Positions 55,851 through 63,364 of a stretch of DNA of 64,000 bases are shown in pieces. The notes under the pieces were generated by a model. The model saw only the letters and a list, made by a program, of their open reading frames with translations, was not told where the DNA came from and ran no database searches. Position 1 is the first letter of the stretch; each line of letters starts with the position of its first letter. Origin of the DNA: Pseudomonadota bacterium (GTDB lineage Bacteria > Pseudomonadota > Gammaproteobacteria > RBG-16-57-12); the NCBI GenBank assembly GCA_040752855.1, contig JBFMHP010000039.1:5202-69201 (forward strand), written 5' to 3'. A program made the position numbers and the translations under genes.

Positions 55851-56906
55851 CTATGTGATTTGCGATGCGAGTTGCGCGAGCAGGCGCTCTACCGGGGCGG
55901 CCAATCCGCGCGCATCGGGTTGTTGAGTGTTATACCAGACTATGTCGCCCGGTTCCATGATGCGATGGCCTGCAGAGCGCGATTGCAGCAGCAGCGGTTG
56001 GATGTCGAGATGAAAATGGCTGAAGGTGTGGCGCAGCACCGCGCCCGGGGTGGGCTGCCGCACCGTGAGGCCGTAGCGGCGCGCGCACCAGGCCTCGAGC
56101 GGATCGTCCTGCGGCCACTCCGGCAGGCTCCACAAACCACCCCAGATGCCGGTGGGCGGGCGACGTTCGAGCAGCACGTGTCCGTGGTCATCGCGAATGA
56201 TCAGCATGGTGGTGGTGCGCACGGGCAGCGCCTTGCGTGGGCGCGGGGTCGGGAAGTCTGCTGTACGCTGCAATTGCCTCGCCTGGCAGCCGGAGTGCAG
56301 CGGGCAGTGCTCGCACTGCGGCCGGGTGCGCGTGCAGCAGGTCGCGCCCAGGTCCATGATGGCCTGGGTGTACTCGGGCACGCGCTCATGCGGGGTGTGC
56401 TGGTCGGCCAGCGCCCAGAGTCGTTTTTCAACCGCGGGCTGCCCCGGCCAGCCTGAGATGGCGTGATAGCGGCAGAGCACGCGCTTGACGTTGCCGTCGA
56501 GGATCACCTGGCGGCTGCCGGTGCTGAAGGCGAGGATCGCCCCGGCGGTGGAGGGGCCGATGCCGGGCAGGGCCACGACCTGCTCGAACTCGGTGGGAAA
56601 ACGCCCGCAATGCTCATCGCGGATGCGCTGCGCGGCGCGGTGCAGATTGCGCGCCCGGGCGTAATAGCCGAGCCCGCTCCAGAGGTGCAGCACCTCGTCG
56701 ATGCCGGCATCGGCGAGGCGCACCACATCGGGGAAGCGTGCCATGAAGCGCTGGTAATACGGAATGACGGTCGTGACCTGGGTCTGCTGCAACATAATCT
56801 CGGAGATCCAGATCGCATAGGCGTCGCGCCCCTGCTGCCAAGGCAGGTCCTTGCGGCCGGAATGGTCGTACCAGGCGAGGAGTTGTTTGGCGAAGGAGTC
56901 TGACAT
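55851..56906 (-). CDS. mutY: A/G-specific adenine glycosylase
   Basis: [37 protein letters not shown], 4Fe-4S Cys motif. Confidence 0.96.
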
Positions 56907-57085
56907 GGCTGCGCTTAACATACAGGATTGTGATTGCGAAAACAGCTAGCAACCGCTGGCAGCCGCGGCGGCATAAAATGATCGATAACCTTGTCTAAAA
57001 TTACTTGACCGCATCTGAACGAGACAATTCTCAAATTCCCGGAATTGACGTAACATGACCGCTCGAACATAAATAGCCGCCAACC

Positions 57086-57514
57086 ATGCTGCAGCTGCGC
57101 CGACACATCCTGAACAACGCGTATCTCTGGACCATCTGCCTGGCAAGCGCGCTGGTTTTCGTGTTCTGTGTGCAGCCGCATATACATATTCACACGGACC
57201 ACCAACACACCGCCGACGTAGCGCCACACCCCCACCAAGCCGATGTGCATCAATCCCATTTGGGAAACACGCATGACGCCGAACACGGCTCCGCGGCCCA
57301 TTTGGAGCATGAAACCTATGTCGTCAATGTCTCACCCGACGGGATACACAAATCCTTTACTTCCATGCTGCTGGTCTGCGCGCTTATAAGCATTGTCATT
57401 CTCTTGCTTTCGCCGGCAACCCGCCTATTGCTGAGTTTCCCGCATCAAGACGATTTCCCTCACCTTCGCCGCCGCGCGGCCCTGCCGCCCCAACTGCGCG
57501 CGCCGCCGCGCTAA
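57086..57514 (+). CDS. His-rich two-TM protein with a C-terminal RAPP motif (upstream ORF of czcCBA)
   Basis: TM1, then HIHIHTDHQH...HPH...H...H...H...H..H, then TM2, ending LPPQLRAPPR*. Confidence 0.75.
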   Translation: MLQLRRHILNNAYLWTICLASALVFVFCVQPHIHIHTDHQHTADVAPHPHQADVHQSHLGNTHDAEHGSAAHLEHETYVVNVSPDGIHKSFTSMLLVCALISIVILLLSPATRLLLSFPHQDDFPHLRRRAALPPQLRAPPR

Positions 57515-57650
57515 ACATCCCTCTTCGCATCACTGAAAAGCACTGACGCCACCGGCGTTCAGGCATGCCTGCGCGCTGTCACGCCGGGCATCCGGAACCT
57601 TCGTCCGCGGGCAGTGCACATCAACCGGCAAAAACACAGAAGGAATACAC

Positions 57651-58910
57651 ATGAGATATGCATTCATTTGGATGCTGGCGTGCATGGCGACACCCATCGC
57701 CCAGGCAACGCCGGAAACCGCCCCCTCGCCCCTCACACTGCAACAGGTGATCGGCCGGGTGCTGGAACGGAATCCACAGCTCGCGATTCACGATTTTGAG
57801 CGCCAAGCAGCGGCCGCCAGAACACGCCAGGCCGAGCAAAGCACTCCGTATGAACTGCGGATGGAGCTGGCAAACCTGGCCGGCAGCGGCGCCTATCAGG
57901 GTATCGATCGGCTGGAGTCCACCCTCAGCCTCATCAGGCTGCTGGAGACCCGTGAGTTACGCGCCTCCCGCCGCGACCTGGCGCAGCAGCACACCCTGTT
58001 GTTGCGCAATGAACAGGACAGCCAACGCCTGGATCTGCTGGCGCACGCAACCGAACAGTTCATCCATGTGGTGGTTGATCAACACAAACTCAGGATCGCC
58101 GAGGACCATCTGACCCTGGTGCGCCACACTCACGAGATCGTTTCGCAGCGGGTCAAGGCGGGCAGGAGCCACATCGCCGAACAACGCCGCCTGGAGATGG
58201 CGTTGGCGCGCGCCGAGATCGAGCTGGAACACGCCGAGCATGAACTCAATACATCACGCCTGAAACTGGCGGCCTTTTGGGGCGAATCCCAGCCGGACTT
58301 CGGCAGCGCAACCGCCGACCTGGTTGCCCTGCCCTCACTGCCCCCCTTCGCGCAACTGGAAACCCTGCTGACCGACAATCCCGACCTGGTGCGTTTCGCC
58401 AGCGAGGAACGCATCGCCCAGGCCCGCGTAAAGCTGGCACAGGCGCGCCGCGCGGCCCCCATGGAGCTGTCAGGGGGCCTCCGATATTTCAACGACGTCA
58501 ACGACGCCGCACTGACGGCCTCCATCAGCATTCCGCTGGGCGCCGGGTCCCGTGCCCGGCCCGAGATCGACGAAATGCAGGCCCTGTCGGCACGCGAACC
58601 CCTGCGTTTTGAACAGCGGCGTCTGGCGCTGCGCGCCGGTCTCTATGAACTCTACCAAGAGGCGCTGCATGCCCGCACCGCGTTCGAAGCGCTGCACCAT
58701 CGGATCATCCCGGCGGCGCAACTGGCGGCAGAAGACTACGAAACGGGGTATCAGAGCGGCCGCTTTTCCTTGCTCGAACTGAACGAAGCCCAAGGCGCCT
58801 TGCTCGACGCCCGGCGCGAGGCGGTGCTGGCCGCCGCCAACTACCACCGCCTGAGCATTGAAATCGAACGGCTGACAGGCGCCGCGCTGCGAACCGGAGA
58901 ACCATCATGA
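57651..58910 (+). CDS. czcC: TolC/CzcC family outer membrane efflux protein
   Basis: Signal peptide, LTLQQVI..VLERNP.L, GY.SGRFSLLEL..AQ; operon context. Confidence 0.85.
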   Translation: MRYAFIWMLACMATPIAQATPETAPSPLTLQQVIGRVLERNPQLAIHDFERQAAAARTRQAEQSTPYELRMELANLAGSGAYQGIDRLESTLSLIRLLETRELRASRRDLAQQHTLLLRNEQDSQRLDLLAHATEQFIHVVVDQHKLRIAEDHLTLVRHTHEIVSQRVKAGRSHIAEQRRLEMALARAEIELEHAEHELNTSRLKLAAFWGESQPDFGSATADLVALPSLPPFAQLETLLTDNPDLVRFASEERIAQARVKLAQARRAAPMELSGGLRYFNDVNDAALTASISIPLGAGSRARPEIDEMQALSAREPLRFEQRRLALRAGLYELYQEALHARTAFEALHHRIIPAAQLAAEDYETGYQSGRFSLLELNEAQGALLDARREAVLAAANYHRLSIEIERLTGAALRTGEPS

Positions 58911-60178
58911 ACAAAAATTTTCTGTACACGCTGTCAGTCGCCGTCATCGGCACGGCGCTGCTTTTTTGGCTGCTCTTCGACGAGCCGCACCACGATGAGG
59001 CTCACGGTCACGACGACCACGGCGGTCATCACGGTGAGGGCGCCGGGGAAGCGATGGAAAGAGGTCCGCATGGCGGACGCCTGCTGCGCGACGGCGATTT
59101 TGCCCTGGAGATCACGCTGTTCGAACAGGGCGTACCGCCGGAGTTTCATCTCTACAGCTATCAAAAAGGTGCAGCGATCGATCCCGCAGACGTCGACGTC
59201 GTCATCAAACTGACGCGGCTAGACGGCCAGGTGGATACCTTTAATTTCACGCCGCAAAATGACTTTCTGCGCGGCGACGGCGTTGTCACCGAGCCCCACT
59301 CGTTTGACGTCGCGGTCGAGGCCACCCATAAAGGTCAACGCCACCAGTGGCAGTATGAAAACTACGAAGGCCGCGTGCAGATCGCCGACCCCATCGCCCA
59401 GCAAAGCGGTGTCCAAACGCAGATTGCCGGGCCGCGCACCCTTGAAGAAACCCTGAATCTCACCGGCCGCATTCAGGCCGATCCCAACCGGCTGTCGCAG
59501 GTCCGCGCCCGCTTCCCCGGCATGGTGAAACAGGTGCAACGGGAGCTTGGCGAGCAGGTGCGGCGCGGTGATGTGCTGGCGGAGATCCAAAGCAACGAGA
59601 GCCTGCAAACTTACCGGCTCACGGCGCCCATCGGCGGCGTCATCATTCAGCGCGATGTGCAGGCGGGCGAAATCACCGCCGACGCGCCGCTGTTTGTCAT
59701 CGCCGACCTCTCCAAGGTCTGGGCGGAACTCGATGTCTTCAACCAGGACATCGGTCGCGTGCGTCCCGGCCAGGCGGTTGTGCTGGAAACCCTCAGCGGT
59801 GAACGCGCAGCAGGAAAGATCGATTGGCTCTCGCCCATGGCGGCCCACGCCAGCCAGAGCGTGCAGGCGCGCGTCGTCATCCACAACGACGACTTGAAAC
59901 TCCGACCCGGCCAATTCATCCGCGGACGCGTCACCGTCGCCGAGCATAACGTCCCCCTGGCGGTGCGCAAATCGGGCATCCAGGCGTTTCGCGATTTTCA
60001 GGTGGTCTTCGCCCGCATCAACAACACCTACGAGGTGCGCATGTTGGAGCTGGGGCGCGAGGATCACGATTGGGTCGAGGTGCGGGGCGGCCTCAAGCCA
60101 GGCACGGAGTACGCGACCGAAAACAGTTTTCTGATCAAGGCCGACATCGAAAAGTCCGGCGCGTCCCATGACCACTAG
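58907..60178 (+). CDS. czcB: heavy-metal RND periplasmic adaptor with His-rich N-terminus
   Basis: HHDEAHGHDDHGGHH, RGPHGGRLL, VRARFPG, APIGG, KSGASHDH. Confidence 0.88.
   Translation: MNKNFLYTLSVAVIGTALLFWLLFDEPHHDEAHGHDDHGGHHGEGAGEAMERGPHGGRLLRDGDFALEITLFEQGVPPEFHLYSYQKGAAIDPADVDVVIKLTRLDGQVDTFNFTPQNDFLRGDGVVTEPHSFDVAVEATHKGQRHQWQYENYEGRVQIADPIAQQSGVQTQIAGPRTLEETLNLTGRIQADPNRLSQVRARFPGMVKQVQRELGEQVRRGDVLAEIQSNESLQTYRLTAPIGGVIIQRDVQAGEITADAPLFVIADLSKVWAELDVFNQDIGRVRPGQAVVLETLSGERAAGKIDWLSPMAAHASQSVQARVVIHNDDLKLRPGQFIRGRVTVAEHNVPLAVRKSGIQAFRDFQVVFARINNTYEVRMLELGREDHDWVEVRGGLKPGTEYATENSFLIKADIEKSGASHDH

Positions 60179-63364
<3,186 letters not shown>

Follow-up and report, generated by a model that had tools for sequence, protein, structure and literature searches.

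How might a heavy-metal efflux operon be switched when no dedicated transcriptional regulator is encoded beside it? The question is raised by a 64,000-nucleotide (nt) stretch of a gammaproteobacterial genome (Pseudomonadota bacterium, GenBank assembly GCA_040752855.1, contig JBFMHP010000039.1, positions 5,202 to 69,201 of the forward strand; hereafter the window), in which a czcCBA operon is preceded by a small open reading frame (ORF) encoding a histidine-rich, putatively membrane-inserted peptide that ends in the arrest motif RAPP. Czc-type heavy-metal pumps of the resistance-nodulation-division (RND) class are textbook examples of control by two-component systems. An original prediction, made from the sequence of the window alone, had proposed this ORF as a candidate metal-sensing leader of the operon. 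The computational analysis reported here favors, with moderate confidence, a reading in which the leader would be a cis-acting, membrane-inserted, force-sensitive RAPP arrest sensor of czcCBA, of the kind represented by the copper-responsive leaders CruR and CutF and with His in the place of Cys, as judged from sequence comparison and from analogy with these systems.

The layout of the locus is collected in Table 1. Coordinates and translation reproduce the 142-amino-acid (aa) ORF as first described, with two hydrophobic segments around a His-rich loop and an LPPQLRAPPR terminus, and the RAPP codons lie exactly where they had been placed. The first hydrophobic segment is preceded by a basic N-terminus, MLQLRRH, and is predicted to serve as a signal anchor or signal peptide. 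It is followed by a loop containing 14 His, 8 Asp/Glu and no Cys, and by the second segment (TM2, for second transmembrane segment), whose hydropathy reaches 3.34 over 15 residues and which is a predicted stop-transfer helix with a basic tail behind it. This tail ends AALPPQLRAPPR before the stop codon (57512-57514), a single Arg codon (57509-57511) separating the latter from RAPP. Segments were judged by hydropathy and by AlphaFold2 helices, and TM2 boundaries by a simple hydropathy rule; on these grounds the N-terminal hydrophobic segment is more than 30 residues away from the arrest motif, as in the RAPP/RGPP class of arrest peptides. The AlphaFold2 model, obtained from an alignment of 130 relatives, is poor overall (predicted local distance difference test, pLDDT, 67; predicted template modelling score, pTM, 0.36) and shows the loop as disordered (pLDDT 51-57) and the tail as devoid of structure. 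Predicted disorder of the loop is what would be expected of a nascent-chain sensor, rather than of a folded domain.

Table 1. Features of the leader locus and of the operon behind it, in window positions.
Feature	Position	Strand	Basis or remark
Promoter-like hexamers TTGACG (57045-57050) and CATAAA (57068-57073), 17 nt between them	57045..57073	+	Read from sequence
Leader ORF, 142 aa, His-rich, two hydrophobic segments, LRAPPR before the stop	57086..57514	+	ATG start, TAA stop
Hydrophobic segment 1, residues ~12-29	57119..57172	+	Hydropathy; AlphaFold2 helix 2-28, pLDDT 77-89
His-rich loop, residues 31-90, begins PHIHIH	57176..57355	+	Read from translation
Hydrophobic segment 2 (TM2), residues 91-110, FTSMLLVCALISIVILLLSP	57356..57415	+	Hydropathy; AlphaFold2 helix 84-116
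TM2-to-motif tail, residues 111-137, sequence variable, length fixed	57416..57496	+	Comparison of 146 members
RAPP codons CGC GCG CCG CCG, residues 138-141 of 142	57497..57508	+	Read from sequence
Tract immediately behind the stop, rich in C (16 in 40 nt) and poor in G (6 in 40 nt)	57515..57554	+	Base counts
Leader-czcC spacer, 136 nt	57515..57650	+	czcC Shine-Dalgarno GAAGGA at 57639-57644
czcC	57651-58910	+	Pfam OEP; NCBIfam IhpA/IhpB and CzcB/NccB among the operon matches below cut-offs
czcB	58907-60178	+	Pfam HlyD_D23; NCBIfam CzcB/NccB, below cut-off
czcA-like RND gene, 1057 aa	60191-63364	+	Assigned by length and use as BLAST reference
Lipoprotein-like ORF at operon end, 150 aa	63377..63829	+	No Pfam family

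What raises the leader above chance is the conservation of RAPP across a family, and not the motif alone. A word-indexed search returned 9 homologues of 44-75% identity, all with PQLRAPP, while a profile search over 1.84 billion representatives recovered 176 clusters at E <= 0.001, 31 at <= 1e-10 and 10 at <= 1e-30. Of 159 family sequences, 150 have RAPP close to the C-terminus, an outcome that spares the original prediction, for which loss of the motif in homologues had been named as fatal. The motif is followed by one residue in 86 of these sequences, two in 42, three in 13 and four to nine in 9, so that 141 of the 150 have 1-3 residues behind it. The nine sequences without a RAPP end carry RGPP (3), RSPP, CGPP, HAPP, QAPP or RGPL, except for one (P0084) without the motif altogether. 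All 10 close sequences share PQLRAPP without change. Over the 130 of 159 sequences that were aligned (8 close relatives were set aside, as were 21 sequences that were fragmentary, extended at the N-terminus or outlying, with 4 of the 9 RAPP exceptions among them), mean column identity is about 22%, the sole invariant columns are H32, P140 and P141, and H34, H63, P135, L137, R138 and A139 are conserved at 90% or above. The best-conserved block of the family is its RAPP end, 1-3 codons before the stop, with the extended motif x-P-[PQ]-L-R-A-P-P. At 25 distinct loci the L-R-A-P-P codons include all four for Ala and for Pro, six for Leu and five for Arg, and this free synonymous variation indicates that selection acts on the peptide rather than on an RNA motif. 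The stop codons of family leaders, surveyed at 25 loci with 38-64% G+C, are TAA in 20, TGA in 4 and TAG in 1.

This family is unnamed in Pfam and NCBIfam, where the window leader matches no family above the curated cut-off; its 30 nearest ESM Atlas clusters are all annotated 'hypothetical protein' and have no Pfam family in common. One profile match, L022 (384 aa, without RAPP), proved false and was dropped. With the source genome counted in each case, members are present in 4 of 7 genomes of the order by whole-genome search, in 17 of 400 sampled genomes of the class, and, at a stricter threshold, in 7 of 401 genomes of a phylum-wide sample. Named relatives come from metagenome-assembled genomes (MAGs) of Candidatus Tenderia, Thiohalomonadales and an unclassified gammaproteobacterium.

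The spacing between TM2 and RAPP, which the original prediction had singled out for comparison, is conserved as well. Among the 146 members of at least 125 aa, the end of TM2 is 24-34 residues from the second Pro (median 31, quartiles 29-32), unlike the length of the loop, which varies from 52 to 119 residues. If the ribosome stalls with Pro140 in the P-site, the window TM2 would lie 30-49 residues from the peptidyl-transferase centre. Transmembrane helices are described as pulling on the chain from when their N-terminal end is ~45 residues off this centre until their C-terminal end is ~45 residues off (PMC7886326), and TM2 falls within this range, which suggests, by analogy, that the arrest site is placed where TM2 is integrating. 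The loops of the same 146 members contain a median of 11 His (range 4-17); 126 are without Cys and only 2 contain CxxC, in keeping with the earlier proposal that a His cluster replaces the CxxC site of CruR.

Conservation and spacing also bear on the possibility that the leader acts chiefly in trans, through a product that is small, stable, located in the inner membrane and able to bind metal, and that serves, for instance, as a chaperone, as an accessory of the pump or as a regulator like CzcI. In that case RAPP might only tune the synthesis of this protein or constitute a protein-interaction motif. In its favor, conservation extends beyond the C-terminus to LHxH, behind segment 1, and to ExDxSPxGxxK, ahead of TM2, and weak resemblance to CbtA (7 of 130 members) and to a Ni/Co efflux transporter model (also 7) points the same way. 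Yet the block under strongest conservation is the very end of the peptide, the distance from TM2 to RAPP is fixed where its sequence is not, and the loop is predicted to be disordered in a model of low quality. Furthermore, each distinct family ORF comes first in its operon, and the products of CruR and CutF were not detected in cells according to the published accounts (PMC9426467, PMC9973294). A role in trans is judged on balance to be quite unlikely as the main function of the leader.

Genomic context offers a further line of evidence. All 29 distinct family ORFs are the first gene of an operon, on the same strand as the metal-related genes behind them; this set leaves out L040, in which the script found no RAPP-ended ORF, and L041, which has fewer than 6 His although it ends TRAPPFA and precedes an OEP gene. 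The next gene is an OEP gene in 18 (11 by BLASTX to the window CzcC, 6 by Pfam and 1 by near-identity to a tested one), in line with the original prediction. One more ORF is followed 36 nt on by a second family ORF and then by czcC, and two by a lipoprotein-like ORF of 150-165 aa that leads to an OEP gene or to another leader. In the remaining eight the family ORF heads a HupE_UreJ_2 gene, either directly (4, by Pfam) or with DUF3240 in between (4, of which 2 were tested by Pfam and 2 assigned by similarity). The source genome itself holds a paralog of the latter kind (130 aa, ending LRPPLRAPPL; G000:C42:120181-120573, minus strand; loci L007, L033 and L035), at the head of an operon of DUF3240 (PII-like), HupE_UreJ_2 and DUF6488. 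Two arrangements stand out for the number of leaders: at L003/L006/L027 (G004 and a Thiohalomonadales MAG) two different RAPP-ended His-rich ORFs lie in tandem, 36 nt apart, before one czcC, and in genome G402 (L018/L024) a unit of leader and small lipoprotein-like ORF is repeated before an OEP gene.

These neighbors speak to another explanation, namely that the leader is an arrest peptide of the MifM, VemP, ApdA and ApdP type, monitoring membrane insertion, secretion capacity or envelope stress, and that its histidines are incidental. Its N-terminal localisation signal, spacer of more than 30 residues and C-terminal RAPP are indeed the layout by which monitors of Sec and YidC were found (PMC10987492, as described there). 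However, the genes behind the 29 family ORFs are all metal-related, with no sec or yidC gene among them, and incidental histidines would hardly account for a median of 11 per loop with some positions invariant or nearly so. Such a monitoring role seems very improbable.

In the window, the czcC-czcB-czcA genes (57651..63364, plus strand) form the operon presumed to be controlled by the leader. The absence of an adjacent czcRS-type or MerR regulator, noted in the original prediction, holds over the entire 71.8-kb contig, on which none of the 11 OmpR-type and none of the 5 MerR matches of the genome fall. Across 5 genomes with czcC-linked leaders, an OmpR-type gene is found within 5 kb in none and within 10 kb in one; in the four other than the source genome, the nearest such gene on the same contig is 7.4 kb away, 19.7 kb away, or, in two, absent. 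As for the other genes of the locus, the lipoprotein-like ORF at the end of the operon is related to ORFs lying between family leaders and OEP genes in G402 (BLASTP 22%, E = 4e-08) and therefore looks like a conserved accessory of these operons. The czcB adaptor has a His-rich N-terminal stretch of its own, EPHHDEAHGHDDHGGHHGEG, just past the membrane anchor. Upstream of the leader lies a divergent mutY-like ORF (55851-56921), and the locus is closed by a convergent 667-aa ORF (L032 1211-3214, minus strand; on G000:C39 beyond the window) with the motif HELGHYLGLPDLYD, which looks like a putative secreted metalloprotease.

Comparison with published systems sets the leader beside CruR, CutF and other RAPP-bearing peptides. 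What the original prediction recounted of RAPP in ApdA/ApdP and CruR is correct (PMC9426467, PMC12992588). CruR of Bordetella pertussis (Bp2923), which belongs to DUF2946 and carries CxxC, exerts RAPP-dependent control over a copper-repressed operon for a TonB receptor (PMC9426467); in vitro work has demonstrated the arrest, which leaves the third and fourth RAPP codons in the P and A sites, and RAPP and RGPP arrest ribosomes in many sequence contexts (PMC12992588). CruR resembles the window leader in length (~145 aa), in having a signal for export at the N-terminus and a motif for metal binding, and in the position of RAPP, 1-3 residues ahead of the stop. Both head a metal-homeostasis operon behind a spacer of comparable length, 162 nt for CruR and 136 nt for the leader, and CruR acts in cis. 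The differences concern the sensor and the target: CruR holds a CxxC at a fixed 45 residues from RAPP where the leader has a Cys-free loop with 14 His, four DUF2946 examples were judged by eye to be without the strongly hydrophobic second segment that the leader possesses, and a copper-repressed, TonB-dependent uptake operon stands in the place of an efflux pump operon. Membership of the window protein in DUF2946 was considered and rejected, as it gave no PF11162 match at E <= 1 and has no CxxC. Weak PF11162 matches were obtained for 13 of 130 family members (best 1e-05), and an hhalign comparison of the family with 4 DUF2946 proteins, a small alignment, paired the last 8 columns only, at a probability of 1.5%. 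A Cys-type DUF2946 ORF is found elsewhere in the source genome (G000:C21; locus L034 3860-10282, also L001); it has 129 aa, scores 25.8 bits over a cut-off of 23.7, ends GEPPRSLHA instead of RAPP, and precedes a second operon of OEP, membrane fusion protein and RND genes, with an OmpR-type gene ~4.7 kb upstream (C21:137051-137278).

In its presumed direction of response the leader resembles CutF of Rhodobacter capsulatus (CxxxC, PPP), in which copper prolongs stalling and cutO is turned on (PMC9973294; bioRxiv 10.1101/2025.02.05.636593). There, a metal-dependent stall in an exported nascent leader turns on a detoxification gene, the direction that would be expected for an efflux operon. CutF nonetheless stalls at PPP, in a manner sensitive to elongation factor P, senses through CxxxC and is fully secreted, whereas the leader has RAPP and His; moreover, the short cutO spacer contains a stem-loop that hides the ribosome-binding site, in contrast to the 136 nt without significant structure before czcC. 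A catalogue of 5,334 'CutF-like' proteins in 29 clusters has been reported (PMC9973294, Ozturk et al. 2023). By the working definition used there, the leader has the appropriate size (142 aa), a PP near its end (140-141) and a neighboring gene at a suitable distance (136-nt gap); where that definition asks for a predicted signal peptide, the leader shows by hydropathy a hydrophobic N-terminal segment, which may or may not be one. Clusters 14 and 17 of the catalogue have only His-rich motifs and lie beside HupE/UreJ genes, from which Ni/Co binding was suggested, and OEP/RND neighbors were assigned to Cys-containing clusters (PMC9973294). Compared by published description only, these His-only clusters share the HupE/UreJ arrangement with the C42 paralog and with 8 of the 29 family ORFs, and differ from the window leader, a His-only member that heads czcCBA. 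Neither a TM2 nor its spacing is described for them in the accessible text of PMC9973294.

Other RAPP-bearing peptides are more remote. ApdA, ApdP and the upstream ORFs with RAPP or RGPP in Streptomyces are small proteins with a localisation signal and the RAPP core near the C-terminus (PMC12992588; PMC10951233), and some of them resemble the leader further in having transmembrane segments and metal-related downstream genes. Those that have been characterised, in contrast, monitor Sec/YidC, and the metal-linked Streptomyces examples, as described, are unrelated in sequence and have copper-related neighbors. Neighbors listed in a 2025 EMBO J survey of RAPP/RGPP peptides are TonB receptors, YcnI, PCu(A)C, PepSY and DsbA/thioredoxin, and the word 'efflux' is absent from its main text (PMC12992588). 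CzcI of Cupriavidus metallidurans, too, is a small ORF directly upstream of czcCBA and a proposed metal-sensing regulator; CzcI and CzcI2 are set apart from the leader, by description only, as having no C-terminal proline motif (PMC9973294). No publication was found that joins an arrest peptide to czcCBA, with the proviso that supplements of the RAPP and CutF papers may list czc-linked members. The idea is less new than the original prediction implied, His-only CutF-like proteins having already been published (PMC9973294). The leader probably works like CruR and CutF by analogy of design, similarity to them being detected in the C-terminal motif alone. As far as sequence comparison goes, what is new is a family of His-only, two-helix, RAPP-ended leaders with a fixed helix-to-arrest distance that head both czc-type efflux operons and HupE-type operons.

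From the anatomy, conservation, spacing and operon contexts, and from the missing adjacent regulator, a course of events can be inferred that covers arrest and metal binding, the compartment in which metal is sensed, the sign of the response and the step at the RNA level. Segment 1 would target the nascent chain to the membrane, exposing the His-rich loop outside the cytoplasm, and the ribosome would stall at RAPP, its P-site occupied by Pro140 (57503-57505) and its A-site by Pro141 (57506-57508), a register borrowed from the toeprints reported for CruR, ApdA and ApdP (PMC12992588). At this point TM2 would be within the range where an entering transmembrane helix pulls on the chain, and the ease with which loop and TM2 are translocated and integrated would set the duration of the stall. 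A divalent metal (Zn, Co, Ni or Cd) bound to the loop may change this translocation or integration. Halted a single codon short of the stop, the ribosome would overlie the beginning of the C-rich tract and so decide the expression of czcCBA, either by blocking Rho loading, as for CruR, or by freeing the czcC ribosome-binding site, as for CutF. For an efflux pump, metal would be expected to prolong the stall and turn the operon on.

The RNA features surrounding the leader add some detail. The promoter-like hexamers upstream of it were missed by a strict consensus scan because position 6 of the -10 element is A and not T. A stretch of 12 nt without a Shine-Dalgarno separates this element from the leader ATG, which suggests a nearly leaderless mRNA with a predicted start at ~57078-57082. 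All 6 aligned relatives have the TTGAC box equally far from the ATG, and 7 of 7 close relatives have a promoter match of at least 9/12 with a -10 ending 7-12 nt before the ATG; more distant family members have no clear match. Downstream, the 136-bp spacer before czcC has precisely the length originally given, and short conserved blocks are seen when three close spacers are aligned, a set too small for covariation. C exceeds G in the first 40 nt past the stop at 26 of 29 loci, while the next 60 nt have no skew (12 up, 11 down); the Wilcoxon p of 5e-6 for the former is overstated, as the loci are related. The tract could be a Rho-loading (rut-like) or an anti-Shine-Dalgarno-like element. Its start would be covered by a ribosome stalled 1-3 codons before the stop, and this would suit a Rho-loading site of the CruR type as well as an anti-Shine-Dalgarno of the CutF type.

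The same features leave room for the machine to run in the opposite direction. Under strict CruR logic, a default stall would keep the operon on, and metal would add pulling force and release the stall, allowing Rho to terminate in the spacer and the genes to go down. In the published account this is the only mechanism shown for a metal leader of the RAPP type (PMC9426467). The 136-nt spacer is nearer to the 162 nt of CruR than to the short spacer of CutF, the post-stop tract is of the C-rich, G-poor kind at most loci, and metal repression makes sense for the 8 of 29 family ORFs that head HupE/UreJ-type genes. It would, however, be counter-productive for an efflux pump, and OEP/RND operons are headed by 18 of 29; the C over G skew, moreover, is modest in the window itself. 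This reversed response is regarded as unlikely.

Several observations weigh against the leader being a RAPP arrest sensor of czcCBA in the form proposed above. Among the 18,045 ORFs of 60 aa or more that six-frame translation of the source genome (62% G+C) yields, 8 have RAPP within the last 10 residues, and each of the 11 other orderings of R, A, P and P occurs there in 6-29; in a single ORF the C-terminal motif is thus no rarer than its permutations, and the counts across relatives, which carry the argument, are not independent. One family heads both efflux (OEP/RND) operons and HupE/UreJ operons, the latter usually read as Ni/Co uptake, and one response direction cannot obviously suit both. 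TM2 is positioned where pulling is strongest, so the stall might always release quickly, metal or not. At the RNA level, the spacer stems of the original prediction do appear in the minimum-free-energy fold, but the fold of 57480-57670 is no better than those of shuffled sequences (-58.1 vs -55.4 +/- 4.0 kcal/mol, z = -0.67, equalled by 45 of 200 shuffles). The spacer contains no plus-strand intrinsic terminator and matches no Rfam family at E <= 1. In the window, the post-stop tract and the czcC Shine-Dalgarno would form a weak duplex (-5.3 kcal/mol); stronger partners than this exist elsewhere in the spacer, and of three close relatives only the one from the same genus has a closing CCUC:GAGG helix in its minimum-energy fold. 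Finally, spacer length ranges from 43 to 342 nt, a spread that poorly fits direct ribosome melting of a hairpin at the ribosome-binding site; the gap to the next gene, taken over all 29 family ORFs, is 36-342 nt.

A more specific and more tentative proposal, judged somewhat less likely than not, is that these leaders form a separate, Cys-free class of transmembrane-hairpin arrest peptides. Their release force would stem from integration of TM2 ~31 residues from RAPP and would be gated by a metal-loaded, disordered His loop, so that RND efflux systems of the Zn/Co/Cd type and HupE-type transporters might be controlled through a nearly leaderless mRNA, with readout via the post-stop C-rich tract and with neither a two-component system nor a transcription factor. 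Were this class to exist, the tandem leaders of some genomes would act as serial sensors.

If the leader is a RAPP arrest sensor as proposed, a set of czc-type RND pumps and HupE-type transporters would be switched by a ribosome-bound nascent peptide that reads metal outside the cytoplasm. The principle embodied by CruR and CutF would then no longer be confined to copper and cysteine but include other metals, and histidine as the ligand. The family would also be a naturally occurring case of release force exerted by one defined transmembrane helix whose distance to the arrest site is fixed, and the conversion of metal binding into force would thereby become directly testable.

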